A stretch of 64,000 nucleotides of DNA from Stegostoma tigrinum. Taxonomy: Eukaryota. The stretch covers positions 25,547,078 through 25,611,077 of the forward strand of contig NC_081370.1 in assembly GCF_030684315.1 (NCBI RefSeq), in the 5' to 3' direction. Numbering within the stretch: position 1 is the first letter of the stretch; every line of letters starts with the position of its first letter. The translations under genes and the position numbers were made by a program. This document shows positions 1,229-60,452 of the stretch, in pieces. The notes beneath the pieces are model-generated. The model saw only the letters and a program-made list of their open reading frames with translations. It did no database searches and was not told where the DNA came from.

Positions 1229-1360
1229 AGAGATAATGGGAACTGCAGATGCTGGAGAATCAAAGATAACAAAGTGAGGGGCGGGAAGAACACAGCAGGC
1301 CAAGCAGCATCTCAGGAGCACAAAAGCTGCTGTTTTGGGCCTAGACCCTTCATCAGAAAA
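1229..1360 (-). mobile_element. Solo Neptune-type PLE terminal repeat (pLTR) with mutated hammerhead core
   Basis: Matches the 3' ends of the PLEs at 44110-44240 and 57763-57895; minus strand reads CTGATGA-agggtctaggccc-AAAAC. Confidence 0.85.
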
Positions 1361-3351
1361 GGCTTTTACAAAAACAAACTTAAACTGGAATCACTTCACA
1401 TGGAAAATAAATAAATAAATAGTCTAATTATATCCAAAAGAAAATAGCTAGTAACTGAAGGATACAAATCCAAATATCATACAGGGACCTAGGGACCTCA
1501 CAGGAGTCATGATGTTAGTTATAATCATTTCCTGAAAAACATTTACCCATCTCTCAACTACTATGAGTGATTGAAAGGCCAGCCATTATTTCTAACATCT
1601 AAGAAATGGGTCATACACATGCAACTCTCCAGACTCAACATCTCCACTGACTCATTAAATATTTGCCCTGACCCTTTATCAAAAACTGTGATGAGTTAAC
1701 TGGTTGAGACCATTTGTTCAGTTATCATCTCTGCTGGCTCTCCGCAATCTCTTGTGGCATCCTACCCATTAAAGACCCAAATCAGTACACCTTTGTAAAT
1801 CACTACTCACATTACTCTTAAGATTAAGATTACTTTTAGGAGACAGAACCTGTGCCCTTAACTCCATTTCCACTAAATTACAGGCTTCACTATCAACATT
1901 CCCTTTAAGTTGCCAGAAGTTGCACACCTGTGAATCAACATGCCAACTCATTTTTGCCATGTCCAAAAGCTGCTGCTGTGCATTGATTTCAGAAGTCTGT
2001 GTAGCAGAAAGAAAAAAAACACTAACAAAAATTAATGGTCCACTATCCTTCCAGGTCCACACGCTAGCCGATATCGTAAATTATTCCAACTGCTCCAGCA
2101 CTATCCCTTTCTTTCCCAAAAAAAGTCATCTCCTCATTTGTAAACAAAAAACAACAGTTTGATTGCTCTGTTCTTGCAACCTACAATCCACCTTTAATTG
2201 CATTTGCCTCTCATAAGATTTGACACAGGCACTGCCTTCCAAATTCCTTAGGCCAACAAACAATTGTTTCTCTTTCAGGACATTCCTTAAAATCCAACCC
2301 CTCTGAAGCAGCTTTTGGTCACCCCAAGTGTCTCATTCTTTGGCTACACTGCTGTTAAAAGTCTTGCTAACAACATTATATTAAAGCTAGCTGCTGTTGT
2401 TGTATATTTGACGTTATTTTAAGTTCCAACTTCTACTTAACCAATTCTCCATATTTATTATATAATGCACATTCATGATCGCAACGACAAAAATCAATTT
2501 ATAAGCCAAGATCTTAAGCTCACACAGTCTTGCTTCAGTGACCTTTGTTCAATGGGAGTTTATTGTGGCAGATTTTCCACACTCCCTTCTTCCCCTTGCA
2601 CACTGCCACAATCTTTTTAAATTTTTGACTGTGAGACAATCATTTGTCTTGCACTAAAGTAAGTTTTATACTTAATTCACTTCTGTTATCCATCTCATCA
2701 CAGAAGTCTTTATTACTCTTTACCTGTACACCACTCCTCCCATACCAATCCGTTCCTACTGGCTCTACACTTTAAACTATTTGTCTGATTTCACTTCTGA
2801 CGATACATGAACCAGAAAAGTTAACTACCCTACCTGTTCAGTCTTTACCTGTTTTATGTGGTTATCAATCTGTTAGAAAGGAATCAGCTTGTCCTTTTAA
2901 AAGCAGAAAGTCTATTTACACACACTCCCAACTTTGTGAAAGCTACTGTTTCCATCCTGCAAAGCACGACAATCTAGTTCTTATGAATTGAAACATTCTT
3001 TCCACGCCTCAAAAAAAACCACTATCTACATTAGTTATGGTTCCTAATGTCTGTCTTTATTGAATCACAGGCCCTTTTCCGTGCTGTAGATCTCTTTGGC
3101 CCATTGGGTCTGACCCAAACACCAACCAACTGATGCAATTCCATTTCACATCATTTGACCTGCAGCCTTGGACAACTTAGCATCATAAGTGAACATCTAA
3201 ACAATTGAATGTTGGAGGGTTTCTGCATCTACCAGGCTTAGAAACAGTGAGTTCTAAATTGCCATTACCTCTCCACAAACATGGATTTGCTATACCATTT
3301 GACCACAAATTTCATCACAAAACTATTACCTACAATTGGTCCAATTCTTAC

Positions 3352-3461: not shown

Positions 3462-3635
3462 CTGCCCAAAATATATTAAAACACTTTGTAGGTATAATTC
3501 TTAACATGTCTATTGTAATCTTAAACAGTTGAGCTTGAGGAATAAAGTTGTATTAAATAAACTTCCTATAAAATAGATTCAAATGTTGGTTTGCTGGATT
3601 ACTGAACCATAACCTAGCACTTCAGTGAACTTGTT

Positions 3636-3722
3636 ACAGAGGTAGTAGGAACTGCCAATGCTGGAAAATCTGAGATAACAAGGTGTAGAACTGGATGAAC
3701 ACAGCAGGCTAAGCACCTTGTT
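3636..3722 (-). mobile_element. Short PLE pLTR-derived insertion with 17-bp TSD
   Basis: TSD acttcagtgaa(c/t)ttgtt at 3619-3635 and 3723-3739; pLTR tail plus a short inverted piece caccttgtta. Confidence 0.85.
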
Positions 3723-5772
3723 ACTTCAGTGAATTTGTTGACTTTTAATGTGGTCTAATAATTTATTTTTCCACAGGGAATTGACCACATCATTATTTTC
3801 TCTAATTGAATGAAAAAAAACTGGTCTGATTTTCTTAAAAGATGTGCGTGTCATGCGGTGGAACAGTGAACATGTGAATTACGGTAACTAATCCCACCCT
3901 GCAGTTACTTTCATTGTGCAGGTGCTCATATTTAGATACCTAGAGTAAATAACCAATTAAGACTCTTTTAGTACATCATGCTCATGGTTAAATAACGCAA
4001 TATAGTGCTCTTCATTGATTGGACTATATAGGGAATTTACAGGCACTTATCTCTTGCAATCTTCCACTCAAAATATTCAGTGGGTTGTGGAACCACTGGC
4101 TTAGCCAACGTTTGTTATTTAAGACTTGTAACCATTGAACCTAATAGTTTTCAGCCATTTCATTGGGCAGTTCAGTCAACCACATGACCAGGGGTCTGCA
4201 GTCACATCTGCACCATGTTTCTTTGCCCAAAAATTTAAAAAAAAGTGGCGAATGAGAGTTTAAAAATACATGATAGGTGGTCTGGTCAACATTAACATTA
4301 GCTCTTATATTCCAGAACTATTCACTGAATTTAAATTTCTAGGGGTCACGGTGAGATTTGAAACTCTGTCCCCACTACAACAGCCTAAGGCCCAGGATTA
4401 CTCGTCCAGCAACATTTATATTGTGCCACTCTCTCTTCCATAAAATTAATTGCAAATGGTAAGAATTGCAGAAAGCTATGTCAGGAAACACAACAAATCC
4501 AGCTGGGTCATTTAGGGACAAGATAAGATTTCACTGGAGTTATAAAAACTATTTTGTAAGGGTATAAGCACACAATTTTAAGATTGATTTTAAGACTGCA
4601 CCTTCTTTAAAGTAGTCTTGAATAAACCATGTGCACAGCTTGAAGAGGTAACAAAATTATTTGACCTACAAGCGAGATTATTTGCAACTGCAAGCGTACA
4701 TATAGGCAATCCATCCCTTAAAGTTTTGACTCAGACTGCATGTATACAAACGTTCATGGCAGTTGGTCAACGTAACTGATGCAAAACAAAGCTTTAAGTC
4801 AGCTCAGCTTGCACAAATATTTTCCTTTTCAATAGAATCAATGATTAGAGTACAGAAGGAAGCCATTCCACCTATCACTTGCAAGACAGCTCTTGCAAGA
4901 GCAACTTAGCTTATCCCACACCCGTCTTATTTCCCCAGTGACCTGCAGTTTTATTCTCCTCTACCTATTAATCATTTCCCTCTTCAAAGTCACAAGTGAA
5001 TCCGCTTCCACTACACACAGATCCTAAACATTCAATTCTCAATTTTTTGACTAATGGGAAAAGTTTCTGTCCAAATTAATTTTAACACCTTGAACAAATT
5101 TCCTCTCAGCCTTTGCTTTTCCAAGGATGGCAGATCTGGCTAAACTAATCTATCCACACAACTGAAATAGTGTATCTCCAGAACTACTACTGTAAACTGC
5201 TTTTCAAACAAACAATGTCCTCCAATATTTTCATGTTCTTTGGTAATGTATGATGCGCATATCTGGATACAATATTGGGGATAAATCAGTGTTTCACAGA
5301 GATTCACCAGAGTTTCCTTCTGAACACCACACCTTAATTTCTAAGCATCAACAGTTCCTATATGCCTTATATACTCTCATACTCGTCCAAATCCTGTCCT
5401 AAAATATAGAAATATAGGCCCCATCTACCAGAAGGAGCTAGAGTAAATAAGGTCAGATGGAAAATGCAGAACAGCAGGCTATACGATCATAGAACATTTT
5501 ATTATTCCAATAGCAAAACAAAAAAAGCACACAAATTTTACACAGATTTCCAAAACTATCCTTGTGGAATTGAACAGGAGGTTTATACTCAAGATGCAGA
5601 AAAGCTTGAAAGGTTTGGAATGCTTTCATACTTCATATGTTTGTTAAATTTGATCAAAATAATGCTTTGGAGAGTTGGAGCACTTGGTTTGAATCACTTA
5701 GACCCTCAAGTATACACTGAGCTCTCCTAGAAAATGTTTCACAGTTAAAAAACAAAAAAAAGCACCACGTAC

Positions 5773-13541: not shown

Positions 13542-13701
13542 GAGTGGTACGTTTTCCAAGTGCGACTCTTGTGTTGGCCCTTGAATTTCCCTTTCCAGAG
13601 CACTGTAGTTTGGTTTGACTCTGATGTTCATTGGACAACTTTCCTGCATTTTTCCTGCTGCCATTTACAAACATATTCCTGGTTTCTCCCAACCACTTCA
13701 T
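13542..13701 (-). CDS. KMT5B: KMT5B first coding exon ([53 protein letters not shown]); exon extends into the 5'UTR to about 13784
   Basis: Not in the ORF track; ATG at 13701, 160 coding bp, donor C|gtaagt, acceptor ttttaacag at 13785; N-terminus MKWLGE matches human KMT5B. Confidence 0.95.
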
Positions 13702-16000: not shown

Positions 16001-16113
16001 AGGTGTCAATTTGCACCTCCCAAATCCATATTATTTTTAAAACTCCAAACAAGAACCCCTTCAAGTTTCCAAAAGGTACTAAAATGCGCTCAATCACAAA
16101 TGATAGCCAGTGA

Positions 16114-16327
16114 AGTAACAAGATGTGGAGCTGGATGAACACAGCAGGCCAAGCAGCATCTTAGAACCAGGAAAGCTGACGTTTCGGGCCTAGACCATTT
16201 CTGATGAAAGATCTCGGCCCAGAACGTCAGCTTTCCTGCTCCTAAGATGCTGCTTGGCCTGCTGTGTTCATCCAGCTCTACATCTTGTTATCTCGGATTC
16301 TCCAGCATCTGCAGTTCCTATTATCTC
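16114..16327 (+). mobile_element. Fold-back PLE pLTR element with hammerhead motif and 13-bp TSD
   Basis: ~80-bp inverted arms (16116-16196 vs 16210-16290); CTGATGA at 16201; TSD tg(a/g)tagccagtga at 16101-16113 and 16328-16340. Confidence 0.9.
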
Positions 16328-18379
16328 TGGTAGCCAGTGAGAGACTGCTAAAGATAAACAATTCCTCTTTGTCCTTACAATCTGTCTGCAACCTTTAACA
16401 TCACTATTTTTCTCTTATGTCACTCCACGGACGTCCAGCTGAGCGAGACTGCATCTACCCAATTCCATTCTTATTTATCTATCTAATCACAGCCAAAAAA
16501 CCTATCAAGTTTCTCTTGCACCTCCTTCACCATTAACTCCGGTGATCCACCCTCAGCCTCTCAGTTTTCTCATCTTCACACTACACCTTAACCAAAAGCC
16601 CAGTGTTGGTTTTCACATGTATGCAAGCAACAGAAACACGACTCACCTTGCATCAGTCCACCATTATCAAATTCAGCCGACTGATCCAACTTCTAGTGCT
16701 GACTGATCATGAATATCCTCTAATTAAACATCAGGAAAATTGACGTATCGCTTTTGGTCCAGAATTCCATTTCCTAGCGAATCGATCATTCTCCCTGACT
16801 ACTGTCTGGAGCTGAATTAAATTGTTCGCACCCTTAGGTATGTATAAAAACCCAAGTCGAGATTCCAACCACAGAACTGCAATCACCAAGGCTGCTCATT
16901 TTCACCTGCGGAACGGTTGCTTTGTTCAACTCATCTCCTGCTGAAATCTTCATCCATGTCTTTGTTACCTTCAGGCTTGACTATTTCAAGTCAGTCACGG
17001 CTATCTTCCTACAGTCTATCCTCCAAAAACCTGATGTCAGTTAAAACTGTACCAATAATGGTCTTTAACAAAGCAAGTCTTGCCCATCATCCACATGCCC
17101 AAAGACATACACAGACCATCATTCAAACTATCCCTCAACTTTTTCCAATTTCACAAGTTCATTTTCAAGTCAGTCCTTAGACCCATTCCTTATTATCCTT
17201 AAATCTCTCAGAACAACCATAATCCTCACCACTGTTCAGAATAAAATACTTGTTAAAAAACAAACAGCAGACAGAAATCCTGCACTACCTGCCTGCCGCT
17301 CCTAATCTGTTTGATCGTTACCATTTGCCATCTGTTGACAATTTTAAGCGGTAGGGTGGCCAGCTCCTGAAAAATGCTATCATGTCACACTTAGCCTCAA
17401 CAACATACTTGAGCAACAGGAGATGCTTCAAGGCAGGAACACCAAAACTCAAGGTCCTAAAGTACGTGGTCATTTTGGACACAAGAGATCTTGTACGAAA
17501 AGGATTACATTGGAGGGGTCCAAAAGGTGGTGTTCTGCTGGATTTCTATTTAATAGACTAACACCCAAACCTATTGGCAATATAACTGAAGACTTGAAAC
17601 ATCACATTTCATAACTCACCCTGTTCTCGCATAGCACCCACCTGTATTCTTGTAAACCACTGTACTAGGCATGTTCTCCCCGGAAATAGTATTAAAGGGA
17701 AATCCTTGGAAATTTTGAGGTAAAACTCAACCCCAACATGACAGCATTATCAGACGACATTAGCTCGCTTCAGACCAATCTCACAACAGGCAGCTGATAA
17801 ATACTCCATTTTATTGGACCAGATTTTTCTGGCATATTTATATAAACCAAGCTCACTGTTGGGCAAACTCAAAAACAACAACATCTTTAGGCTGATTCAG
17901 AGTCAAAAGTCGCAAAAGCAGAATTATGCAATGGCAATAGTGCCTGAAGGGGTCCAGGAATGCAACGGACAAATAAGTTAAAATACTTGCATTCACATAA
18001 CACCTTTCATGACTCGTGGACATCACAAAAGACTTAACAGCCAACATAGTATTTTTGGAGCACAGTCAGTGCAGTAATGCACTGGGGATTCCACACAGCA
18101 AGCTCCTATAAAGAGTACCGTGATCCTAATAAGGTCATTTCTCTTTTCAAAACGATGCTGATTAAGAAGTAAACATCAACCAGGAAACCTGAGTTCATCC
18201 TCTGGCCATTCATAATATCTACTTCCCAGCTTGATCTGTTCAGAGACACAAGTCAATCACCACAACTTGTGAAAAACATCAACACCGTCTGTGGCAGTAA
18301 GAAAAAAATCTTGCTTTTAATTACAAAGAACTTTGAAAACGAACAGTCATATAGTACATCCTCAACTTCAAGCTGTAGA

Positions 18380-20138: not shown

Positions 20139-20717
20139 AAAAGATGAAACTTCAAGAACATGGGTTAACAGCCTTGAAGGATTGTTCACTCATTTGCAAA
20201 GATGATATTTGTTTCAGTTATTACAGCATGTCTCTTTCAATACTGCTAATAAATTTAATAAGTCAACCCACTCCTGATAATTCAAAGATCTGAAACAATG
20301 TTATAGCCCGTAATTTATATTAGGTAATATATTGCAAGGAAAGAGTTTGTAGTTGACAGCAGATTACTTGAGTCAAGTGTTTGAGTTAAACAGACTTTTA
20401 ACTGGCAAGTATAACAGAACCAAAATTACCTGAAACAATAATTTTTTCACCTTAAAAAAACTGTGGGAATAATTTATTTCAGTTAAAAAAGTGAAATAAA
20501 ACACTCGAACATGTAAATGTAGCAACTACTTGGAAATGAACTAATAACGTTATTATTTATTATGAGAACTGAAAACAGCAGTAGGAGGTTATGCTTCAGT
20601 TATTTAGAGAGTTAAAGACACCACATCCAGAGTACCAAGTACAGATTTGGTCTCCTTATGCAAGGCTGGAAGTGCAGTCAGTTTCCAGATCACAAACAGG
20701 TTCCACTTTGGAGTCTG

Positions 20718-20862
20718 AGATAACAAGGTGTAGAGCTGGATGAACACAACAGGCCAAGCAGCATCCTGCTCCTCTGATGTTGCTTGGTCTGCTGTGTTCA
20801 TCCAATTCTACACTTTGTTATCTCAGATTCTCCAGCATCTGCAGTTCCTACTATCTCTGAAG
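20718..20862 (+). mobile_element. Fold-back PLE pLTR element (hammerhead deleted) with 15-bp TSD
   Basis: Inverted arms agataacaaggtgtag.../...ctacactttgttatct; TSD cca(c/t)tttggagtctg at 20703-20717 and 20863-20877. Confidence 0.88.
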
Positions 20863-23474
20863 CCATTTTGGAGTCTGTTTGCAAGTCAGAACACCACTCA
20901 CAATGTAAAGTAAATGCTTGTATATCAGGTGTTCTAAGTTACGTCCCCCATAAGGGATTATGCCTGTTATTCAGACAACCCCTCTAACTACGTCAGAAAT
21001 ACTTCACAAAGTTAACCAAACTAATATTAGAACGGGTGAGTTGTCTGATGAAGGAACGCCAGAAAACTTAGCCTTGAAGCCATTGTAACAGAAGATGTGT
21101 GTTTGCGTGTGTGTGTATGCACACACATGGTTGGGGGGGGGGCGCGAAATCAGGATTGACATTTGTCTTAGCAGGGTAAATACAGAAAGGATATTTCTCA
21201 TGGGAGAATCTAGAAGCTCCAGAGTCACTTTCAAATTTGAGTTGCCCATTTCAGATGTGAGGAGAAACTCGAGTGTTTGGAGTTTCCTTCCTGAAACACC
21301 ACTGCAGAATTCTTGAAAATTTTACTGGCAAAGATGGATACATTGTTGAGAAGCAAACAGGTGAAAGGTGATCACTGATAGGCAAGAACATGAAGTAACA
21401 ACGTCAGCTGTTATCTTACTGAATGGCCAAGCAGGCTCAAAAAGCCAAGTGGCCCGCTCCTAATTCATCCACTTAGAAAGTATACTTTTGTACAATATAC
21501 AAGGAGCCGAAGTAATGCATGAAGCTGTAATGGGATATGAAAGATTATATAACTGATAGGACAATCAACCATGCAGTAGCTGAAGCAGAAAGCAGCATCC
21601 TCCAGCAGTGACGCAACCTTCCCAGATTATTGACAACCATGTTTAATTGACTACATAACTAACCTGCACATATTTTTGCTTTTCTGGAATTATCATGATA
21701 TACACTTCTTGTGTCAAGGTAAGGGTATCTCTCACTTCTACTTTCAACTCCAGTCAAGCTTCTCATGGTCGTATTGCTACAAATTCATGTTGTCATGAGG
21801 GTAGTCAAGTGACAAAGAAAAACCAGGTGAAAGGAGGGGTTTTTCCTTGGGTCACATTTTGTATATCTCGCACCAATGACAACCAAAAATGCACAAAAGG
21901 GATGTTCTTACATTGGCTGGTTGGAGTACGTTCTAACTACAAACACCAGAAGAAACACTCAGTTTAATTTACGCACAAATTCAGGGCCATTTTGGTATAA
22001 AATCCATAATTCAAATTCCAATTTAAAAAACATTAACTGTTTTTGTCATCAATAGTGTCACTACATTTTTCTTTATAATGTTGACAGTTGAGAACAAGCA
22101 ATTTATTGACTATTTAAACTGAACATGCGATGAAACCACTTTAAAAAACAATTATGAACAGAAACACAGGACAAGAACACAAGTTTCACATTAGAAGTCA
22201 TTCAATTCTAAAATCATTCATGAATAAAAATATTTAATCAAAAAAAACAAATCCCAGGTGACAATCAGCACAAACTATCAACTTACATGTGCTTCTAAAG
22301 CACATAGCTGTTGAAGTTACTGCAGTTGACGTTGATGCTTATGAATAATACTGAATAACCATGCATTCATTATTGTAATTTTTTTTACACAAGTTAAAAA
22401 TACAGAAACACAAATAGGACCATTCAGCCCCTCAAGCCCACTTTGCCAGCAAGGTCATGGCTGATCTGCATCTCAGCTCTATTTATCTCTCTTGGATCCT
22501 TATTTCACATTAACTTTATTCAATAAAAAACAATTAATGTTCCAATTTTAAATTAACTGAGCAAGAATTCGTGCCTATTTAAGTGTAAAAAGCAGACACT
22601 GCACTGAATTTGCACATGCAAATAAAAGCTGGTTTTCAATTATTTGTTATTTTTGATGGTGTTTGTTGAAGCTAAAAAAGTTTGCCAAGACACTGGTTTT
22701 CATTCTTCTTTGAGATGATGGAATCCTCCACTTCCATCCAAGATAGACCTCATCTGCAAATCAGCACCCATAATAATACGGGCTTGACTCAGGACTGTTA
22801 TTCTAAGGTCATCCTGTATTATAAAAGATAAAGTCAAAAGTGGGGTTTGAACACAATCTTTGAATTCAGATACAAGTGCTCCCGATTGAGCATTTTAATT
22901 TTGAAACTCAAGTCTTGGGAGCTTGTGTTTTCCAATCTGTTCAATTAGTATCCAAACCTACATTCATACCCAATGAATGCATGAAGCAAGTGTTATATCT
23001 GTTCAAAAGACTAACCAAGTCAATATAGAGAAATGCCAAACGACACTCAAAATGGCAAATAGTAACACATTACATTACAGATCAAATTTTACACAATGAT
23101 ACGTATTTAATTAAAACCCAACTGTCAATCAAGATGCAGTTTATGAAAATGACATCGCCTATTTCGAGGAATAAGAGACTCACATTAAAAAAAAGCATCT
23201 TTCACAACTTCAAAGCATCTGTAAGCATTACAACCAATAAAGAGAGTTTTTGAAGTGTGATCACTTTTGTCATGTAGTCCATTTGTGATCAACAAGAACT
23301 GAAGTAATAAGATAGTGGTCATATAAAATTGTTTTGGTGATGCTGGTTGAGATATACATATTAGTCTGGAAACCAGAATTCCCAACATTCTCCAAGTGCT
23401 GCCTTTGAACACTGACTTCCAACTGAGAGGGCATATTTGGTGGAACACTTTATGTTAAATAAAATGGGAGAGCC

Positions 23475-24178: not shown

Positions 24179-25179
24179 GCAGCATTCCCCTAGCATCGCA
24201 CTACAGTGTCAGCTTGAATGACATAGTCAAGTGTCTGAAGGGAATCTTGTACAGCTTTCTGTCCCAGGAGAATGCTATCACTGAACCAAAGCTGATAACT
24301 GATTCCAGTTTTCATACTGTATCTAGATGAAGGTGACTATTTAGTCCATCACCACTAGACTATACATAAAGATTGAAATATGACTTGCTCATCATAAACA
24401 AATATTCAGCTATTCTATAAATGGCTCAAGTAAACTCCACATGACCACTCTCGAGAAGCATGTCAGCTAAGTCCTAAGTGTACCTGTTAAAGCTGTGCAT
24501 CTACTACAGTTAATATAACGTTTAGGTTTTAGTTGTGTTCAGATTTACACATTCTATAGATTGCATAAAAAGCTGAAAACTCTTATGGTTGAAAAAAATT
24601 AAGCTGAATAGAACAAGTAGTCTGAACATGAAGCCCTGTCACAAACAGACCTGTAGCTTTGCTTGCTTAGAGTTCAGCACGCAAATGTCTCACTTTAATT
24701 TCAACTACAGGCCACAACATCAAAAAACTAAAAACGTGGTCTGACAAAAATTAAAAGTTTAAGCATGATTTTCTCACTACCTTGACCTATTATAAACTCT
24801 CCAATTTTAAATTACAGATTACATATCAGTGAATATATCATTACAAAATCTAACGTTAATCCAATTGGTGTAAAATGCATTAACCTGTCTAGTTCTATCT
24901 TTACAAATAAAAAGTACTTCAGAGAATAATCAGGAAGACTACAAAACAAAAATGCTTTTCTTTCGTAAATTTTGAAAGGAATTAGATATATACATGGTCT
25001 GGACGTATGTTTTCAACACTTGGTCAGTTGTCATATTTCTTTGTTAGGAGGAGGAGGAAGCCACATATATTCCTATTATAACAATTACTCCGATAAAAGT
25101 AGGAGAACGAAGGTCACGGGAAATTGCCTCCAAGATTCAAAGTTACCAACGACTGAAGGTAAAATGCTTCTTAACGGGC

Positions 25180-26650
25180 ATCAATTGCCTTGTTGTATAT
25201 ACAAACAGAGGTCAGACAAGATCACTGACGACACGATACTATGCCGGTACTGATACGACAGCAGGTTTGCTTTACACTTGACCTCAACACGAAGCAAAGC
25301 ATTAAGAGTTTGCACCTCTCTCTCTCTCGATAAACGATATCTCACCGCCCCCTTCCGACTAAAGTAGAAAGAGAACCCGAGCAACAAAACCTTAAAATCC
25401 AGTTTCTGGACACTTGGCCACAAGACGAAAGAAACTCAGGAAAGGCACGAAAACGCACATAGGAAATCGCATCACTTTTATGGGGGGGGGGGGGAAAAAG
25501 AGTGGAAAAAGAGAAAAAGCTAGGTTCAAGAGTAAAACAAAATGCCAAATCGAAGGAAAAAAAACGTAATTTAAGAGACGAGCAGCATTTAATCCTGAAG
25601 GACATTTCCAATTTCCTCCACCTGGCGGCGTATTTCTTTAAAATTGGTTAGTCTCTTTAAATCGCCAAAAGATAATGACTATATCTAAATGAGGTTGTAG
25701 AAATTTAAAAACTTACACCCGTCAATGTCACAAAACAGCTCTGCAAGGACAAAACAGACCGGTATAAAAAGAGCTACTGTGCAAACAAATTACGGCTAAA
25801 AGCCGATGATGGAACGTGAAGTTAAAGCCGGTTCCATTTTGTACGGCTGGCTTCAGGAGGAGGAGAAGAAAAAAAAGAGGAAAACCGTTCAGGCCGAAAG
25901 CAAAGCCTCGGCATAAACTCTCCGAAAAACAGGACGGCAGCTCCATCCCTTCGGCATCGACGTCGAAAACAATCGCCGCTTGTTCGAGGAAAGGGAGCAG
26001 AACAAAAACCCTAGTTTAAAAAAATTCCTACGAATTTTATTGTTTAAAAACACAGACACACACACAGAGGGAGGGAGAGGCAGAGAGAGAGAGAACCCCG
26101 GCCATGATTTCTCACCCCAACTTAGCTGCTTTCAGCGATCAGACGTGGGCCAACATCAATACAGAAACACCCGAGCGAGTCGTCCTTATTTTTTAAAAAA
26201 ACAAAAATACGTAAACTTCCGTCGTTGTTTTTCTTTAAAAACCCCACCCTCGCTTCGCTTCTGTCCTCAGGTCGAGCCAGGGATCGCCGTCCAAATTTGC
26301 GGGGCAATTTCTACAAAATTAACATTATAATCCAACATGGCGGCTGGCGTCGGCCGGCGGGCTGTCAGCGGCTCCCGCAGCGACTGGCAAAATAATCCCG
26401 CAGCTTCTTCCACCTCCGCCACCACCCCCCCACCCCGACTACTCCCTCACTTCTCCACCTCCCTCAACAAAAAAAAACCGGGGTGGGGAAAGAGAGAAGA
26501 ACACACTATCTCCAACCTTCAGCCGCCCGGCGAGAAACACCGATCGACCGGCGAAGGCTTTCTCTTGACTGCTTGATGTTCCGAGCCAGGGTGCGGCTGC
26601 CTTTTATTTTAATTATCAATTTAAATCCCCTCTCATCCAAAACGCGGATG
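25180..26650 (-). promoter_or_regulatory. KMT5B: CpG island / probable KMT5B promoter
   Basis: Sharp rise in CpG density in an otherwise CpG-depleted window, ~12 kb upstream of the first coding exon; YY1-like CCGCCATGTT on the minus strand at about 26334-26343. Confidence 0.8.
26116..26400 (-). other. KMT5B: Probable non-coding exon 1 of KMT5B (TSS not locatable)
   Basis: Donor GGG|gtgaga at 26115 inside the CpG island; alternative donors at about 25716 (|gtaagt) and 25345 (|gtgag). Confidence 0.5.
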
Positions 26651-28397
26651 TATACAGTAAAAAGTCCCTCCCTCCCTCTCTCTCTTCTCAAGCAATTCAT
26701 TTCCCTTTAACATCACACGATGATGATAAGATACCTCATCTTCATGCTCCTGCTCCTCTCCACTTTCCATTAATGCACACTTTCTGAATAGTTACTTACT
26801 TTTTTTCGTTTTTCTCTGAGAAAGGAAGAGCCAGGGCAGTGTTAAAGTGTCACAGCAGAACGCTTCCCTTGGCTACATTGGGAACTTATGAGTCCGGGGA
26901 ACTTGATGATGCTCTGTTTTTAATGTGTTTTTCTGGGGCATTATTTTCTCCCTGCTTCCCCACCCAGTCGTGCACGTAAAGCTGTTGGTCTCTATTGTAT
27001 TGCAAAGTAAACTAAGCAGTAATCCCATGAGCATCCCTATGCTTTGGAGGGAGAGAGAATTCAGTTACCATCTGAGTCCAAATTTGTAAGAAACTAGGGG
27101 CTTTGTCCTCACATTATCATCACAGAAAGAAAATTGTTAAGCTGTTCCACAGTCACGCAAAATTACTGTGATCAAGGAAACTCTCACACTTAGTTGACAG
27201 TAGTACAGTTCAAACTTACAGAATGGACACCATTGTAAATTTTGAAGTGATGTTGAAATATTTTCTCAACTTAGAGGCTCAAGGGTTAGAGTCTCATTTT
27301 GGCAATAATGTATTGACACCTTAAATGTAACTGGCACTTCTTTGTGGCTTCACTACAGAGTTGCTGGCACTTTCCAAAATTATATTTCATTCATTTTTTC
27401 CATAATGAGTCATGACTTAAACTGATGTTGGGTTACGATAAATTAATTATCCCTATCCTTTCTCTGCTGTACTGGAAATCATATGAAAAGTTAAGGGAAA
27501 GCAATCAATAAAAAGGTTGATCCAGATAAATAATTCAATACTTGTTTTAAGTCAATATTTATCCGGATTAGGTATACAGGTGATGAAGAGATTTATAATG
27601 TTGTGAAGAACAGAAGTAAAACCATGGATTGAGAGTTTTAGAAACGAGTAAAAGGATAAAAATATTAATAAAAACAGAAAACATAGATTGAAATTAAACT
27701 AGCCAGATATGTAAAACCTTTATAAGAATATAAAGAGGAAAGTAACTAAACATTTCTCCCTAAAACACAGGAGAAATTATCACTGGGAATGAAGAGATAA
27801 CAGAGGCCAAATGCTATACAAACACAGTTAATAAGTGTGACACATTAGGCAAAATGACTTACATATGGAAAATGAAGTGTTATCAAGGAGTGAACAACAG
27901 TGCGGAGTTTCAAATAATTAGTATCAGAACAGAAAAAAGAGTGAGAATTATAAACCACCAATTCTGATGGCCTGCACCGAGGGTTGTAAAAGTGACAGTT
28001 GCACAGGATGGATATAAGAGTTATTATTTTCCAAAAATCTCTGGATCCAAAGTTAGAAAATGTAACACCACTGTACACTAAAAAAAGTAAGGAAACAAAA
28101 ATAGGGAAATGCAGGCTACTTAGCCAGACACCAATTATTGGGAAAATCCTGGAATTTATGAATAAGTAGAACTTAATAATGTAATCTGAAAATCATGGCA
28201 TGGTTTTACAAAGTCAGCACGGTTTTACAAAAGGGAAATCATGAAGTCATAGAGTTATTAAGGCACAGAAAGAGACCCTCAGCCCATGGAATCCATGTTC
28301 CTGAGAAATCAATCAGTCCCATTACACTGTTTTATCCCCATAGACCTATAAGTTTATTTCACTCAAGTGCCCATCAAATTTCTTTTGTCATTTTTTT

Positions 28398-28712: not shown

Positions 28713-29140
28713 CGCCTCTACTTATCCTTACTTCCACCAGCCTAGCATTAATCAAATTCCAGATCATTATCACACATTGCATAAAAAAGTTCTTTCTCAC
28801 ATCTCCTATGCATCCGTTGCTAAAAACTTAAATTTGTGTTGATTTGTACTATCAGCTAATCAAACAGCTTTTTTTTTGTCTGGCCTCTCCAAAGAAATCT
28901 ATAAATGACATAGAAGAAAACATGGAGGATAGGTAAGTTAGAAGATGATACGATGATAGGCTGGGCAGTTGACAGTGATGAAGGAGGAGGATATAAACAG
29001 TCAATAAGGTTCACATGTTCAGAAAGGAGAGATCACATCCAGAGTGAGACAGCCCAAGTGAGTATATAGTTTGGGGAATTTAGAATATGTCAGAATAGAC
29101 TGGATAGACATAGAAGTGTGACATCACAGGTAAACCATAG

Positions 29141-29340
29141 AGATAGAAGGAACTGCCAATGCTGGAGAATCTGAGATAACAAGGTGTAGAGCTGGATGAA
29201 CACAGCAGGCCAAGCAGCATCAGAGGAGCAGGAAAGCTGACATTTCAGGTCGACACCTTTCTTCAGAATTGGGTCTCAACCTGAAATGTCAGCACTGATG
29301 CTGCTCGGCCTGCTGTGTTCATCCAGCTCTACACCTTGTT
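29141..29340 (-). mobile_element. Fold-back PLE pLTR element with hammerhead motif and perfect 18-bp TSD
   Basis: TSD atcacaggtaaaccatag at 29123-29140 and 29341-29358; minus strand reads CTGAAGA-aaggtgtcgacct-GAAAT-GTC. Confidence 0.92.
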
Positions 29341-29784
29341 ATCACAGGTAAACCATAGGTGTTTTTGGTAGAAATTAACTACCAATTTGACTATCTATTA
29401 AAGATAATTTCAGATTGAAGGTAAGTAGGCAAAATATTTACATGCTGCAAACTAAAAGACCAATACAAAATTTTAAAATATCAAATTAAGAACTAAGTAA
29501 TTAAAATAGAGATGTTGGACCAGGCCATGTGTTGTAATTGCATGGTGTGCTTGCTGGTGGACCCTATTGTAGTTCATAATGATCATATTTGTCGCAAGTA
29601 TTGGTTGCTTGAGGAAATCCAGCTTAGAGTCTGAGTTTTAAACATTGCAATGCATCAAGGAGGGGAAGAGTTACCTGATCATTGTGTTTCAGGAGCCAGT
29701 CACATTCCTTAGACTATCTACCTCAAATTCAATCACGGGTCAGGGACAGGAGGATGTGACTGCAAGCACGGCAGGTAGAGGGTG

Positions 29785-35517: not shown

Positions 35518-35738
35518 AAATGAAAAACAGCATTTGATCAGTCATAATTTATCCATCCAGGATAATTGCATTTACCATATTGCAGCATCCAATTCGTTTC
35601 TTAAATAATTCTAGGCAATTTTTTCTGCACTCCACTGCTTGGAACTGTATTGAACATTTTGGATTGTCCCATGTGTGAATTACTATTTCCTATATAAATC
35701 CTGAGATTATGTTTTACTAGTTTAAAATTGCATCACTT

Positions 35739-38472: not shown

Positions 38473-40174
38473 CTGTGTCTAAAGTAATGTGCCATAGCCA
38501 GCTGGAGTCTGATAACACATGGTAACACGATATTTGGGACCTTACTGAATCATGAAAACAAATATAAACCATCTTAATCAATGAGATTTAGAGATTGAGG
38601 AATAAACAGAGGAATGACTCAGCAAGTTAAACTAAAAAGGGCAAATTCGTAGCAAGTAATATATGAAAAGACAAATAAAGTGGGAAATGAAAGAGGGAGT
38701 GAGAGAAAATGAATGGAAAAACCAAAATGTTTACAACTTGACATTATGAACATTTGACAATTTCAACAATTCCCTACCTGAAGGAATGATAATGCGTGTG
38801 AGTTTAAGAAGCAATGTTCAAATTCTTCACTTCATGAAATTCTCAGATTAATTACAAGATATGTCATCAAAACTAACAGCAGAGGCACATAACTTCTTTA
38901 GCAACTCATGGTAATTTTCAATTCATGGGTCATCTCTTCCTGATCAAAGACTACTGGCCAATTTGCACAGTAGCAATTGCATGTATTATTTATAAGTTCT
39001 GACACAATCTACAAATTTAGATTTTCTACTTCCTTGAGCACCTTGTGTACCGCGAGAGGATGAATTAGCGGATTCTTCCATTCTAATGTCACAAGTGTAT
39101 CAACATTTTACATATTTTGTACATGAAGTTAAGATGTCTTTTAAAATAAATATGGGAAGACCTGCAAAATAGCACTTGAAAGTCAAATCACTTCACTTGT
39201 GGCTTTAATTGTAGCCAAAATAATCAGATAATCAGATTCTGTTATTTTAAGAGTCAATTGCAAGTGGTTATTAACAAATTTAAGGATTCTGGGACTGTGC
39301 ATTGAACCCTCAAAAGATGGGAGACTCAAGCTTTTGAACTGCTGAATAGGATTCAGGAAGAAGCACATCATAAGAAGTGCTGTGAACAATAACTCTTTAA
39401 AAAGTTGGTCTGATTCCAAGACATTTGAAAAGGAATGGACACACACATCTCGAGAGCACCCCTGAGAATCAGAAAGACTGGGAATGGGATTGAAAACCAT
39501 GAAATCAGGACTCGCCTGCAATTCCTAAAAATCTCCTATGTAATCTTGACTATGTGAAAATCTAAGTAGTTAAACATTTGGCTATTTGTCCACACTATCG
39601 CTAAGACTGCCTTTTTCCTCAATCCCTCAATCTGCCCCTTACTCTGCTTATCTGTTTCTGAATCCTTCAGCCACGCCTTTGTAATTTTTACGTTTGTCTT
39701 TCTCAACATAGAATTAAACAGGCACTTGCATTCCATATTCTGTACTTGTAAGAACATCGAAACCTCTGCTTGTTTTTCCTTCATGTTAATAGTGAGACAG
39801 CCATCCATTCTGCTGCCTGTGTCCTGAATCCACATTTGATGTCTTCATCAAAATTTTACTTTTCTGTAGCTTATTGAAGGCTTTAAGAAAATCCATAATT
39901 ATTTCTAGTATATTTTAATTCCGTCCCCTTTTGAATACTACTTCAAAAACATTCAACCACCACTAACTTTCCAATTGAAAATTTGACAGGAAGCTTCAAC
40001 ATGGCAAAAATCAAGACAATTTAGGAACCACTGTTTCACACTGACATGGTGGAAAGCTCAAACTTGCTTCCTTAAAAAATATGAGGTGATAAGTCAATTG
40101 AAATTTCCAGGACTCTCTGTTGTTAGATCAGGATACAGAACAAGGGCATGTAAAAGGAGCTGATATGCGTATGA

Positions 40175-40341
40175 GATAGTAAGAACTGCAGATGCTGGAG
40201 TCAGAGATAACACAGTGTGGAGCTGGAGGAACACAGCAGGCCAGTTTTCTGAAGAAGGATCCTGAGTCCAAACATCAACTTTCCTGCTCCCCTGATACTA
40301 CCTGGCCTGCTGTGTTCCTCCAGCTCCACATTGTGTTATCT
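40175..40341. mobile_element. Fold-back PLE pLTR element with perfect 15-bp TSD
   Basis: TSD ctgatatgcgtatga at 40160-40174 and 40342-40356; inverted arms; degenerate core CTGAAGA...caaacatc. Confidence 0.9.
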
Positions 40342-40530
40342 CTGATATGCGTATGAATTGTGATCAAATCAAATAGTGGAAAATACTTTTGGCACTGAAA
40401 CTTTATCTTCAATTTCAGGGTCAAATCTGACACCAAAATCTGGTTCTGTCTCAGAGAGTTCCCAGGAAGAAGAGTGGTAGCATTGGCTGAGTAGTGAAGG
40501 TCAGAGCAGGGACTGAATAGCTTGGGTCAT

Positions 40531-42755: not shown

Positions 42756-44240
42756 GCCTTGAACCCCACCTCTTCCTCCATTACATTGATGACTGTATTG
42801 GCGCCGCCTCGTGCTCCCAAGAGGAGTTCGAACAGTTCATCCACTTCACCAACACCTTTCACCCCAACCTTAAGTTCACTTTGACCATCTCCAACACATC
42901 CCTCACCTTCCTTGACCTCTCTGTCTCCATCTCAGACAACTACCGAGAAACCGACATCCATTTCACGCCCACCGACTCCCACAGCTACCTAGAATACACC
43001 TCCTCCCACCCACCTTCCTGCAAAAATTCCATCCCCTATTCCCAATTCCTTTGACTCCACCGCATCTGCTCCCAGGATGAGGCATTCCGCTCCCGCACAC
43101 CTCAGATGTCCTCGTTCTTCAAGGACCGCAACTTCCCCCTGCAGTGGTCGAGAACACCCTCGACCATGTCTCCTGCATTTCCCCCTCGTCATCACATACC
43201 ACCCCAACAATCTCTGGATACAACGCATCATCCTCCGACACTTCCACCATCTACAGTCCGACTCCACCACCAAAGACATTTTTCCATCCCCTCCCCTGTC
43301 TGCTTTCCGGAGAGACCACTCTCTCTGTGGCTCCCTTGTCCGTTCCACACTCCCCTCCAACCCCACCACACCTGGCACTTTCCCCTGCAACCGCAGGAAG
43401 TACAACACTTGCCCCCACACCTCCTCCCTCACCCGCATCCCAGGCCCCAAGTTGACTTTCCACATCAAGCAGATGTTCACCTGCACATCTGCCAATGTGG
43501 TATACTGCATCTGCTGTACCCGTTGTGGCTTCCTCTACATCAGGGAAACCAAACGGAGGCTTGGGGATTGCTTTGCAGAACATCTACGCTCAGTTCGCAA
43601 TAAACAACTGCACCTCCCAGTCACAAACCATTTCAACTCTCCCTCCCATTCCTTGGATGACATGTCCATCCTGGGCCTCCTGCAGTCCCACAACGATGCC
43701 ACCCGAAGGTTGCAGGAACAGGAACTCATATTCCACTTGGGAACCCTGCAGCCCAATGGTATCAATGTGGACTTCACAAGCTTCAAAATCTCCTCTCCCC
43801 CCACTGCATCCCAAAACCAGCCCAGCTCGTCCCCACCTCCCTAACCTGTTCCTCCCCTCACCTATCCCCTCATCCCACCTCAAACCGCACCTCCATTTCC
43901 TACCTACTAACCTAATCCTCCCCCCTTGACCTGTCCGCCCTCCCTGGGCTGATCTAACCCCTCCCTACCTCCACACCTACACTCACCTCTACAGGGTCCA
44001 ACCCGCCCGTTTAACTTGTCTGTCTCCTCTCCATCTATCTTCTCCTCTAGCCATCTTCGATCCATCTCCCCCCTCTCCCTATTTATTTCAGAACACTCTC
44101 CCCATCCGTCTTTTCTGATGAAGGGTCCAGGCCTGAAACGTCAGCTTTTGTGCTCCTGAGATGCTGCTTTGCCTGCTGTGTTCATCCAGCCCCACACTTT
44201 GTTATCTTGGATTCTCCAGCATCTGCAGTTTCCATTATCT
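42756..44240 (+). mobile_element. 5'-truncated Neptune-type PLE (RT end, Cys linker, GIY-YIG, pLTR)
   Basis: PGTFPCNRRKYNTCPH linker; NVVYCICCTRCGFLYIRETKRRLGDCFAEH; possible TSD ccaatcac at 42748-42755 and 44241-44248. Confidence 0.93.
44112..44145 (+). ncRNA. Minimal hammerhead ribozyme motif in the Neptune pLTR
   Basis: CTGATGA(44115)-agggtccaggcct-GAAAC-GTC(44142)-ag. Confidence 0.75.
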
Positions 44241-44829
44241 CCAATCACCCATCTACAATGTGGGCATCATGCTTCATCACAAACCACCATAATCAACTGA
44301 GCTAACCAAACCCCTGACTAGTAGAAACATCTCAATGAGGTTCTCTGCTACTGTTTTTATTTCTCCAATGTTGCTGCACTTCTCATACAGGTCTGCCCTC
44401 CCGAGTCTGACTCACGCGTTCTGCTGACTTGCTGCACAATCTTCACAGGTGGCTTAAGAATATTTGCTTGGAACAAATTTATACTCACCAAATACTTATG
44501 ATCAGACAAGCAGCAAAATCATTTTAAGTTAGAGGAGGGGCTGAGAGAGGTGCTAGTGGGGTGGAAACTGATGGTGTGTTTCTGCATGATGTCCCTGAGG
44601 AGCAACAGATAGGGAAAAATGAGGCTCAGGTTGGAAGGTTTTAACACGAGAGGGAATATTATGGGAATAGGAAGAGAAGTCATTGCAGGTGATTCTCTGG
44701 TTATGACTTGATAGAAAAGAAGGGATCCAGGTAAGTGCAAACCTCCCCAACTGAATGGTGAAGTAGTCAACTGCATTAAATGGAGCTCACAAGATGAAAA
44801 GGTCAGGATGAACATTCTACGTTTGGCAA

Positions 44830-49519: not shown

Positions 49520-49624
49520 AAACCCTGTCTCTGATGAAGGGTCTAGGCCCGAAACGTCAGCTTTTGTGCTCCTGACTTGCTGCTTGGCCTGCTGTGTTCA
49601 TCCGGCTACACACTTTGTTATCTC
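49520..49624 (+). mobile_element. Solo Neptune pLTR lacking the tail
   Basis: Closely similar to 44112-44207; ends at ttgttatctc. Confidence 0.88.
49529..49560 (+). ncRNA. Minimal hammerhead ribozyme motif, intact core
   Basis: ct-CTGATGA(49531)-a-gggt(ctag)gccc-GAAAC-GTC(49558)-ag; G10.1-C11.1 pair retained. Confidence 0.8.
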
Positions 49625-50680
49625 ACATGTGCAAGAATGGACAGAGACAACTGAGGCCTATCAAAATCATTATGCAAAGAAAGGGACTGAAGAACCCTTC
49701 TCTGTTTCAACAGCATCTTGCCAGCTTTGACAATGGGGGGATATCAAAGCTCTTTTGTTAATATAGATTGCCTTCATTTTGTGACAGTAGTCAGCAAACA
49801 CATGATCGAAATGTCCCTTGTAAAAAGTTAAGATTACTTGTCTGCAGTTACAAGAGATTGTAACATCAAGGTGGCTTCAGGGTGGAATAAACAATAGTTC
49901 CCTCCTGACAGTTCACTGATGCTGAAATCTCGTCTCTGCTACAAGTTGGACTACTTCACAAAGCTGCAGAATTAAAAAAAATTTTTCAATTTCACTTCCT
50001 CCACCCTCTATATTAAGCTGTTTGCTTGTATGCTGATGTGCAAGCATGTGCACGTTTGTGCATATTCAGGGATGGTTTTTATTTTTGAATTTATACTTTT
50101 TACTGCGTGAGTTTTTTTAAACAACATAACGAGCTCCTCATTTGCTCGGACAAGAGGTCACGTCTGAAATATTTCTTCATAGCTTTATACAGAGAAAAAT
50201 ACATATTGAATTTGATTAGAAACACATCTATGAAAGAAACACGAACTCTGTTACATGTACGAACATCAGGACTCAAAAGAGAGGAATTTATTGTGACCTC
50301 TGTGCTTGTTGTAACATAAAGAATCCTTTATAGTTAATTCAAATAAAAGTACATAAAAGTTATGACTAAGGAACAAGGAGAATCTTGTGGCAGATACCAG
50401 GCACTCAATATGGCAGAGTCCCTAAAAGACCATAAAGAGGACAGGGGGATGGGACATAAAAATGGAGTTGGTAAAAATAAAGTAGATGAGAAAGCTTTGG
50501 TAGGAAGAATTATAAGAGCAAGGGAATAACTAGAGAAAGAGTATGGTCCATTGAAAACCATTGATGTAACCTCTGTGAGGACGTGTAAGACTAGAACAAT
50601 GGTAGCGAGTTTTGAGAAGATTTGTAGCTCAGGTTGAGGTTCTGGATGTAAGTTTGCTTGCTGAGCTGGAAGGTTCGTTT

Positions 50681-51663: not shown

Positions 51664-51703
51664 TCACTGATGATGTTACTTAGAATGGTGATGAAACGTC
51701 TGA
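51664..51703 (+). ncRNA. Minimal hammerhead motif (direct arm)
   Basis: tca-CTGATGA(51667)-tgttacttagaatggtgat-GAAAC-GTC(51700)-tga. Confidence 0.78.
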
Positions 51704-57762: not shown

Positions 57763-60452
57763 AGAGATAATGTGAACTGCAGATGCTGGAGAATCCAAGA
57801 TAACAAAGTGCGGAGCTGGATGAACACAGCAGGCCAAGCAGCATCTCAGGAGCACAAAAGCTTACTTTTCAGGCTTAGACCATTCATCAGAAAAGGGGGA
57901 TGGGGAGACGATTCTGAAATAAATATGGAGAGAGGGGGATGTGGACTGAAGATGGATAGAGGAGAAGATAGGTGGGGAGGAGAGTATGGGCGGGGAGGGA
58001 GGGAGGGGATAAGTCAGTCCGGGGAGGATGGGCAGGTCAAGGGGGCAGGATGAGGTTAGTAGGTGGGAAATGAAGTTGCGGCTTGAGGTGGGAGGAGGGG
58101 ACAGATGAGAGGAAGAACAGGTTAGGCAGGCTGGGATAAGCTGGGCTGGTTTTGGGATGCAGTTGGGGGAGGGGAGATTTTGAAGCTGATGAAATCCACA
58201 TTGATACCAACGGGCTGCAGGGTTCCCAAGCGGAATAGGAGTTCCTGTTCCTGCAACCTACAACTGGCATCATTATGGTACTACAGAAGGCCCAGGATGG
58301 ACATATCATCTAAGGAATGGGAGGGGGAGTTGAAATGGTTCGTGACTGGGAGGTGCAGTTGTTTACTGCGAATCGAGCGTAGGTGTTCTGCAAAGCGGTC
58401 CCCATGCCGCCGCTTGGTTTCCCTGATGTAAAGGAAGCCACAACGGGTACAGAAATGCAGTATACCACATTGGCAGGTGAACATCTGCTTGATGTGGAAA
58501 GTCATCTTGGGGCCTGGGATGGGGTGAGGGAGGAGGTGTGGGGGCAAGTGTAGCACTTCCTGCGGTTGCAGGGGAAAGTGCCAGGTGTGGTGGGGTTGGA
58601 GGGGAGTGTGGAGCGGACAAGGGAGTCACAGAGAGAGTGGTCTCTCCAGAAAGCAGACAAGGGTGGGGATGGTAAAATGTCTTTCGTGGTGGAGTCGGAC
58701 TGTAGATGGCGGAAGTGTCGGAGTATGATGCGTTGTATCCAGAGGTTGGTAGGGTGATATGTGAGGACTAGGGGGATTCTCTTTTGGCGGTTATTCCGAG
58801 GGTGGGGTGTGAGGGTGAGGTGCAGGAAATGCGGGAGACACGGTCGAGGGCGTTCTCGACCACTGCAGAGGGGAGTTGCGGTCCTTGAAGTACGAGGACA
58901 TCTGGGATGTGCGGGAGCGGAATGCCTCATCCTGGGAGCAGATGCGGTGGAGTCAAAGGAATTGGGAATAGGGGATGGAATTTTTACAGGAAGGTGGGTG
59001 GAAGGAGGTGTATTCCTGGTAGCTGTGGGAGTCGGTGAGCTTGAAATGGACATCGGTTTGTAGGTGGTTGCCTGAGATGGAGACAGAAAGGTCCAGGAAG
59101 GTGAGGGATGTGTTGGAGATGGTCCATGTGAACTTGAGGTTGGGGTGGAAGGTGTTGGTGAAGTGGATGAACTGTTCGAGCTCCCCTTGGGAGCATGAGA
59201 CGGTGCTGATACAGTCATCAATGTAACGGAGGAAGAGGTGGGGTATGGGGCCAGTGTAGGTGCGAAAGAGGGACTGTTCCATGTAACCTACAAAGAGGCA
59301 GGCATAGCCTGGGCCCATGTGGGTACCCATGGCCACCCCCTTGGTCTGTAGGAAGTGGGAGGAATCGAAGGAGAAGTTGTTGAGAGTGAGGACGAGTTTG
59401 GCTAGGTGGATGAGGGTGTTGGTGGAGGGAGACTGGTCGGGTCTGTGGGACAGGAAGAAGCGGATGATCTTGAGGCCATCTGCATGGGGAATGCAGGTGT
59501 ATAGGGAGTGGACGTCCATGGTGAAAATGAGGTGTTGGGGACCGGGGAATTGGAAGTTCTGGAGGAGGTGGAGGGCGAGGGTGGTGTCACGGACGTAAGT
59601 AGGGAGTTCCTGGACCAAGGGGGAGAAAATGGAGTCCAGATAGGTGGAGATAAGTTCGGTAGGGCAGGAGCAGTTGGAGACAATGGGTCGATCAGGGCAG
59701 GTGGGTTTGTGGATTTTGGGAAGGCGATAGAAGCGGGCTGTGCGGGGTTGGGGAACAGTGAGGTTAGAGGCTGTGGATGGGAGGTCACCTGAGGTAATGA
59801 GGTCATGGATGGTTTGGGACATGATGGTTTGGTGTTCGGGGGTGGGGTCATGATCAAGGGGGCAGTAGGAGGAGGTGTTGGAGAGTTGGCATCTGGCCTC
59901 AGCAATGTAAAGGTCAGAGAGCCATACTACAACTGCGCCTCCCTTGTCTGCGGGTTTGATGGTGAGGTTGGGATTGGAACGGAGGGAGCGGAGGGCTGCC
60001 CGTTCTGCAGGGGAGAGGTTGGAGTGGGTGAAAGGGGTGGAGAGGTTGAGGCAGCTAATGTCTCGACGGCAGTTGGAGATGAAGAGGCCGAGGGAGGGTA
60101 GGAGGCCTGGGGGTGGTGTCCAGAAGGAGGGCTTGTGTTGGAGGCGGGAGAAGGGGTCAGTGGAGGGAGGGTTAGGCTCCCGGTTAAAGAAGTAAGCATG
60201 GAGGCGAAGGCGGTGGAAAAACTGCTCGATGTCCATACGTGTCTGGTATTCGTTGATGTGTGGGTGGAGGGGGCCAAAGGTGAGTCCCTTGCTGAGGACT
60301 GACCGTTCATCTTCCATCAGTGGGAGATCTGGGGTGATGGTGAAGACTCGGCAGGGCTCAGTGGGGCTGTCTTCTCTGGGGTAGCTGGCTGTGGAGGCTG
60401 TGGGCGGAGCGATGTGGTCGTCGGCTGTGGGCGGGGTTGTGTTGACGGTGGT
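57763..60452 (-). mobile_element. Long Neptune-type PLE: RT ORF 58953-60317, frameshifted GIY-YIG, pLTR
   Basis: LSKGLTF, IKPADKGGAVVV, LPKIHK, GVAMGT, FLRYIDD (PLE RT); C-terminus matches 43077-43844; hammerhead core mutated. Confidence 0.95.

Follow-up and report, generated by a model that had tools for sequence, protein, structure and literature searches.

Features of the window

The window, i.e., the whole stretch of 64,000 nucleotides of Stegostoma tigrinum DNA which was analysed, contains KMT5B, a minus-strand gene whose coding exons lie at 13701, 10768, 3413 and 737 and whose ATG is at 13701, two truncated copies of a Penelope-like element (PLE), and several short insertions derived from the terminal repeat of this element (Table 1). 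The CpG island at 25001-27000 is likely to be the KMT5B promoter. A first-pass annotation of the same DNA had placed three of the insertions in KMT5B introns; this holds for the copy at 3636, but for those at 16114 and 20718 only if the island at 25-27 kb is the promoter. Positions within the element are numbered in nucleotides from the tail end (0), with negative values upstream of it and a natural full-length copy, L120, as reference. On this scale a second 3' end lies at -35, the predicted hammerhead cut at -100 and the start of the CUGANGA motif at -128.

Table 1. Insertions, PLE copies and sequence features in the window
Feature	Positions	Strand
Single tail arm, end -134, G before it; absent from the first-pass annotation	1230..1363	-
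Insertion 3636-3722: tail arm to -76, 9-nt second arm, 17-nt duplication; KMT5B intron	3619..3739	-
Left target-site duplication of 16114 copy, 13 nt, 1 mismatch	16101..16113	+
Tail-less arm of 16114 copy, positions about -38 to -122	16114..16199	-
Tail-bearing arm of 16114 copy, -134 to 0; few-base microhomology with other arm	16195..16327	+
Minimal hammerhead motif, mutated GAAA core, predicted to be paired away within hairpin	16201..16228	+
Right target-site duplication of 16114 copy	16328..16340	+
Insertion 20718-20862: tail-less arm to -83, tail arm to -95, 15-nt duplication; without hammerhead	20703..20877	
Insertion 29141-29340: tail arm to about -134, intact hammerhead core; tail-less arm internally deleted; 18-nt duplication	29123..29358	
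Insertion 40175-40341, oldest subfamily: tail arm to -74, tail-less arm to -131; 15-nt duplication	40160..40356	
5'-truncated PLE copy: RT end, GIY-YIG endonuclease, terminal repeat with tail	42762..44241	+
TATTTAT, predicted TATA box, 35 nt above hammerhead core; predicted RNA start near 44111	44080..44086	+
Minimal type I hammerhead (CUGAUGA, stem II, GAAAC/GUC); predicted cut after 44142 (= -100)	44115..44142	+
Single tail-less arm, end about -131, G before it, intact hammerhead core; absent from the first-pass annotation	49530..49628	+
2.7-kb PLE copy, 5'-truncated, frameshifted, with tail	57764..60451	-

All five insertions listed by the first-pass annotation (3636-3722, 16114-16327, 20718-20862, 29141-29340 and 40175-40341) were found at these coordinates, and all match the terminal repeat present in both PLE copies (42762-44241 and 57764-60451), from which they had been said to derive. 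They are flanked by direct repeats of 17, 13, 15, 18 and 15 nt, respectively, with 0-1 mismatch, as was expected from the reported target-site duplications of 13-18 bp; in a looser search, chance repeats of at least 13 nt were present in 3 of 300 random 200-nt spans of the window. The tail is carried by one arm and the other arm ends about 35 nt earlier, again as described. The build of two inverted arms was confirmed overall, but in 3636-3722 the second arm has merely about 9 nt. Part or all of a hammerhead motif had been claimed for three of the five; three copies do reach CUGANGA, but the core is intact only in the 29141 copy, the GAAA being broken in those at 16114 and 40175. Arm ends of the five copies, in the same order, are at -76/about -47, -134/-122, -95/-83, -134/about -120 and -74/-131, with none at -100.

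Upon computational folding the 16114 copy would form one long hairpin (-151 kcal/mol, z -19.8) with the hammerhead paired away; the stability of the folded sense repeat was not unusual (z -0.18). An Rfam scan of the window yielded no hammerhead family, and four weak microRNA-like hairpin matches below threshold.

Affiliation of the element

The reference copy L120 is a unit of 3639 nt with an open reading frame of 1103 amino acids from its ATG, which begins about 39 nt past the tail. The frame contains a reverse transcriptase (match to PF00078 with E 1e-5, under the Pfam cut-off) and, C-terminal to it, a GIY-YIG endonuclease with a CCHH motif, as judged by eye in the translation; this arrangement of RT and C-terminal endonuclease in one ORF is that of EN+ PLEs. 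Further EN+ PLE features were partial tandems with an inverted 5'-truncated copy at the 5' end, a tail of 30-40 nt at one end only, with 3' ends clustering at 0 and about -35, and a candidate minimal type I hammerhead in the terminal repeat. In the latter, the variable base of CUGANGA (N7) was T in 103 and A in 52 of 166 motifs, GAAAC/GUC is present, stem II has 5 bp and is retained in the common variants, and stem I has merely 2-3 bp. Between RT and endonuclease, C-x4-C-x2-C precedes the endonuclease, which corresponds to the Neptune motif CX2-5CxxC; in the sources available in part, this motif is common to Neptune and Nematis. Judged by these motifs, the insertions belong to an EN+ PLE of Neptune type. 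A repeat rich in Thr, Pro, Ala and Asp is located at about residues 250-300 of the L120 frame, between an N-terminal motif and the RT; its copy number is variable and its length differs among young copies.

Genome sample and architecture of insertions

An unselected sample of 1.4 Mb was taken, made up of 140 stretches, each 10 kb long and placed at round coordinates of the large contigs. Old subfamilies were added as 15 natural references. The sample contained 357 arms and 84 head-to-head pairs, 80 of which had exactly one tail; extrapolation to 3.2 Gb gives about 190,000 pairs per genome. For tests of length 65 pairs were used, after 19 of the 84 had been dropped (no single tail, or a duplication of less than 9 nt). 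Their target duplications were 9-19 nt long with a mode of 14 (19 of 65 pairs). Of all arms, 189 were left unpaired by the script; the upstream sequence was inspected in 145, and 112 had no further element sequence there.

The claim that short copies outnumber coding ones was borne out: 249 of 357 arms are not longer than 140 nt and 70 reach the ORF. Among 28 young pairs 17 were short and 10 long; old long pairs are under-counted, since a single long reference was used. The build is identical at all lengths, up to locus L122, which consists of a full ORF, an inverted arm and the duplication. Head-to-head arms with one tail are the PLE insertion already described, i.e., an inverted truncated copy plus a tail at one end (PMC8557442, PMC3846280 and PMC8969392, as far as their available text goes), which is present here in its shortest form. 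Loci L125, L126 and L123 contain internally deleted PLE units, tandemly repeated in L125, which are likely products of template jumps. A minisatellite at L174:4915-5547 is made of 39-nt units from the region of the TATA-like box just above the hammerhead. Of 20 single arms, 2 (L247 and L266) sit in the hammerhead region of a related PLE family, possibly a target preference.

A fixed 5' limit of short arms

Arm lengths within a pair are nearly all-or-none: in 50 of the 65 pairs both arms had at most 140 nt, in 14 both were longer, and a single pair was mixed (Fisher p 2e-13); the lengths of long arms are correlated within pairs (Spearman 0.82). The stop would therefore appear to be a property of the template and not an independent pause. 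Among 345 arms away from the edges of the stretches, the rate of ends per nucleotide was 0.6-1.0% between -79 and -121, 2.4% at -122 to -126, 5.3% at -127 to -135 and 0.3% at -136 to -144, and the same profile was obtained with 98 young arms. Exact patterns searched in the whole genome gave 255 starts at -132, compared with 12 at -109, which are under-counted because the pattern requires two intact CpGs, and 5 at -139. Neither arm reaches -122 in 13 of the 50 short pairs, so that trimming or later deletion is needed for these.

The boundary is situated just above the hammerhead and about 30 nt below a conserved TATTTAT; when 16 segments were compared between old and young arms, this one was the best preserved (0.95). 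The box was present above the core in 46 of 50 young, all 13 middle and 21 of 30 old long arms, and in 74 of those 80 the distance between the two was 34-35 nt. Older subfamilies have CCATTTC with the A at -132, which resembles the initiator consensus; the young subfamily has C as first base at -132 and is without a textbook initiator there.

The first templated base is frequently preceded by a G, as was counted by hand in 69 of the first 100 of the 255 genome matches, against a background of 30% and 1 of 17 in controls; one further intended control was discarded, since the G is templated there. Local arms had this G in 19 of 29 cases. When 20 loci with G were fetched and inspected by eye, G stood alone between duplication and element in 4 single arms; 3 others had short filler, in 3 the G was common with the target, 5 were pairs and 5 unclear. 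An untemplated G at full-length L1 and SVA ends was ascribed to the cap (PMC3287187, in part), and start sites of Penelope and Chlamys were located inside the terminal repeat (PMC2377424 and PMC8557442, in the text available). These observations suggest that the boundary at -127 to -135 corresponds to the start, at about -132, of a capped RNA.

Plain 5' truncation had been named by the first-pass annotation as the counter-explanation to its own proposal. In this case two PLE copies would be truncated at random, and short products would simply be the most frequent. It would agree with the scattered stops of long arms and with the known architecture of PLE insertions; the ends are not random, however, as their rate drops 16-fold across -135, the lengths almost never mix, and the extra G would be left without a place, which makes this explanation very improbable.

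At least 4 bases (4-16) of additional sequence on the ORF side were found in 10 of 26 short tail arms; the template should therefore carry the junction of repeat and ORF, as would the 5' end of an RNA derived from a tandem. A jump from a point between -126 and -132 to an internal site was seen in 4 of 20 loci which had been chosen for their ORF content. A subfamily artefact as cause of the pile-up at -129 was rejected, since old subfamilies align upstream, as was a splice acceptor at about -150 as the boundary, since no ends occur there. In the literature searched, which consisted largely of papers accessible without subscription, no account was found of a fixed 5' limit, an extra G or cut-site ends in PLE copies.

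A minor class of ends at the predicted hammerhead cut

Starts at -100 were matched 91 times in the genome, compared with 24 at -90, the one control site on which this class rests. G preceded 14 of the 91 (against the 69 of 100 at -132; hand counts, Fisher 2e-14), the bases added at -100 being A or T. Of twenty fetched loci, 7 were pairs, 8 were single arms flanked by duplications, 4 showed jumps or tandems and 1 was unclear. Two loci, L228 and L229, are tandem arrays in which each unit has about 105 nt, begins at the hammerhead cut and extends slightly beyond the tail. At each of the 8 visible junctions the sequence resumes at -100 after a variable filler of 0-2 nt, which would be expected of repeated jumping from a free end of the RNA. 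Microhomology can inflate the counts, since the palindrome AGCT is located at -100, and 4 of the 8 single arms have first bases in common with the target. In the unselected sample no excess was found at -97 to -103 (0.77% per nt, compared with 0.75-0.84 beside it), and the ribozyme-cut class is therefore small.

It is likely that the class at -100 records cutting of the RNA by the ribozyme in vivo. In vivo evidence for cleavage by PLE hammerheads was not at the disposal of Cervera and De la Pena (PMC4209133, available text), and for the anole PLE the portion of Frangieh et al. at hand (PMC11167929) gives no RNA reads at the hammerhead cut and uncut RNA as the main template. Ribozyme-processed templates, as proposed by the first-pass annotation, can thus be retained for a minority, which likely begin at the cut, but not as the main source, since most ends pile up about 30 nt upstream.

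The boundary at -132 could also reflect a block of reverse transcription at a C-rich tract, or a cut made by a protein, with G being a general terminal addition. A long pyrimidine tract does begin exactly at the boundary. Yet a leaky block should yield many mixed pairs, of which 1 in 65 was seen, ends at -100 do not share the preference for G, and the TATA-like box is at the right distance; a block is thus improbable, and an RNA start is the preferred reading.

Origin of the short fold-back copies

According to the first-pass annotation, the ribozyme-processed hairpin RNA would be a retrozyme- or MITE-like non-autonomous family which the PLE protein copies as a unit. The very high copy number would be expected of such a family, as would the minority of arms which begin at the hammerhead cut. 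Junctions between arms are informative in this respect. They are nearly all distinct in the 65 pairs (32 with microhomologies, 27 with fillers, 6 blunt). One junction occurred twice in the sample, in L098 and L187, and has 89 exact copies in the genome; a control junction has 44. Such recurrence could speak for a family, but when 20 of the 89 loci were examined, the tail was on one arm in 8 and on the other arm in 12, and at least three subfamilies were represented, with the arms within each copy matching each other. The proposed family is thereby largely refuted, and a clonal burst behind this junction was rejected. Short pairs have kept the TATA-like box in none of 50 cases and an intact hammerhead core in 19 of 50, the ribozyme would be sequestered by the modelled hairpin, and long copies are built alike. 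A self-propagating family is on these grounds extremely unlikely; the short products, being without promoter, are likely to be dead on arrival.

The arms diverge by a median of 5% within an insertion and 14% between insertions (61 of 65 pairs scored). For long pairs, the partner was the nearest or second-nearest arm in 8 of 12, with up to 15 rare variants in common; such variants were absent or weak in 4 of 12, and they could also stem from conversion between arms. Since arms are alike within a copy and junctions arise anew, each insertion appears to have been made afresh from one donor.

One donor would also be expected if a single cDNA, or an antisense RNA, folded back and primed its own copying, with the endonuclease trimming the copy by 35 nt; the boundary would then still be an RNA end. 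Both arms agree in subfamily and rare variants, junctions are palindromic, and folding back via antisense RNA was put forward for rotifer PLEs (PMC3846280, available text). This pathway predicts that the tail arm is always longer; it was so in 22 pairs, whereas the tail-less arm was longer in 31 and 12 were ties. Moreover, the G at -132 was found on tail-less (L249, L250, L259) or on tail arms (L257, L263) while the other arm of the copy differed, and single arms of both types exist with duplications. Self-priming is therefore considered unlikely.

Proposed mechanism

It is probable that the fold-backs are each made anew by the PLE enzyme, which would prime from both cut strands near the start of the RNA and run off its 5' end. 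The geometry, the boundaries, the G, the de novo junctions and the derivation of both arms from one subfamily, often from one donor, were observed directly; RNA start, cap and cleavage are deduced from genomic copies. Within a tandem, the RNA would start in the upstream copy, at about -132 under its TATA-like box, and would be capped. The endonuclease would make a staggered cut of about 14 nt; one target 3' end would prime where the tail ends (0 to +5), the other at a site 35 nt internal to it. Both cDNAs should run to the end of the RNA (about 100-135 nt) and be joined via microhomology or short fillers, with variable trimming. Priming at the 3' repeat, or a jump at the RNA end, could give rise to long arms, tandems and internal deletions, and a minority of RNAs cut by the hammerhead to arms which start at -100 without G. 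The two start sites of the anole PLE behave likewise in vitro: in the part of PMC11167929 available, two RT start sites lie a tail apart, both strands are cut and extended, and a dimer is predicted.

More tentatively, and with somewhat less than even probability, the fold-backs could be regarded as a genome-wide fossil record of replication by a paired enzyme, which would prime both target strands, 35 nt apart, at the 5' repeat of a single capped RNA, with two strong-stop-like cDNAs and a jump obligatory for a complete copy; the copies at -100 would then be a first sign of hammerhead cutting in the germ line, and cut and uncut ends would both be jump points which spawn retrozyme-like tandems.

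Comparison with known systems

Insertion units of Penelope/Poseidon, Neptune and Nematis, as described in the available text of PMC8557442, PMC3846280 and PMC8969392, have, as here, head-to-head arms, a tail on one arm, target-site duplications and a hammerhead in the repeat; relative to that text, the present copies differ in that short ones (about 100,000 by extrapolation) form a class of their own, with the fixed 5' limit, the G at this limit and the all-or-none pairing of arm lengths. The anole Poseidon element PAc (PMC11167929, in part) is alike in two RT starts a tail apart, internal to the RNA near the 5' repeat, and in the cutting and extension of both strands. The element here is of Neptune type, however, with the hammerhead in its 5' UTR some 170 nt before the ATG, and ends at the hammerhead cut are seen among its genomic copies, whereas the anole RNA reads showed none there.

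Non-LTR retrozymes of animals (PMC7229834; bioRxiv 10.64898/2026.07.22.740005; both in part) are likewise non-coding, derived from PLE repeats and equipped with type I hammerheads, but they form head-to-tail tandems with a hammerhead in each unit, and circles. Head-to-tail tandem units were not the build of the short elements here, which are head-to-head, with a core that is often broken and no lineage.

MITEs are short, non-coding and of high copy number, with terminal inverted repeats. In contrast to them, the fold-backs have asymmetric arms, variable duplications of 10-18 nt, continuity with RT-coding copies and no clonal junction. The sample revealed no short master with common junction, orientation and variants, as a MITE- or SINE-like family should have, nor the fixed short duplication of a DNA transposase (9-19 nt, mode 14, instead). 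In L1 twin priming both target strands prime, and retroviral strong-stop DNA is a short cDNA which runs off the capped 5' end and may jump. The two pieces in twin priming copy different parts of the RNA, whereas both arms of a fold-back copy the same part; and in contrast to strong-stop DNA, neither a tRNA primer nor an RNase H domain is implied here.

As a new mobile family the finding is ordinary; its value is that of a base-exact record of PLE replication. It bears on the origin of the inverted repeats, tails and tandems of PLEs and on in vivo cutting by minimal hammerheads, and gives base-exact predictions, i.e., that a capped RNA begins at about -132, that another RNA end lies at -100 and that a single RNA is primed at two sites. 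By extrapolation the genome would have about 100,000-190,000 perfect hairpins, a number of which are intronic, and these could be a large source of double-stranded RNA.

Other repeats

Two loci of the sample, L132:4983-6182 and L087:6766-8434, contain head-to-head arrays of tandem units of about 310 and 450 nt, respectively. The units include TATA-like box, hammerhead, tail and the start of the ORF, and every unit in both arms has the same new junction and private variants. The arrays fit the outline of retrozymes and would be retrozyme-like products, perhaps from a small circular RNA. The units were rejected as source families, since their junctions occur at 2 and 1 loci in the genome, and the second locus of L132 type belongs to another subfamily.

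In the window, 35698-38400 has long open frames of a LINE-like reverse transcriptase element (CR1/L2-type by look), and an open frame at 50997-51680 is similar to the thumb/GIY-YIG region of a different PLE lineage, Poseidon-like in appearance. A piece of a second, related PLE terminal-repeat family was found at 60950-61040; its hammerhead variant has another stem II and is also present in the genome sample.
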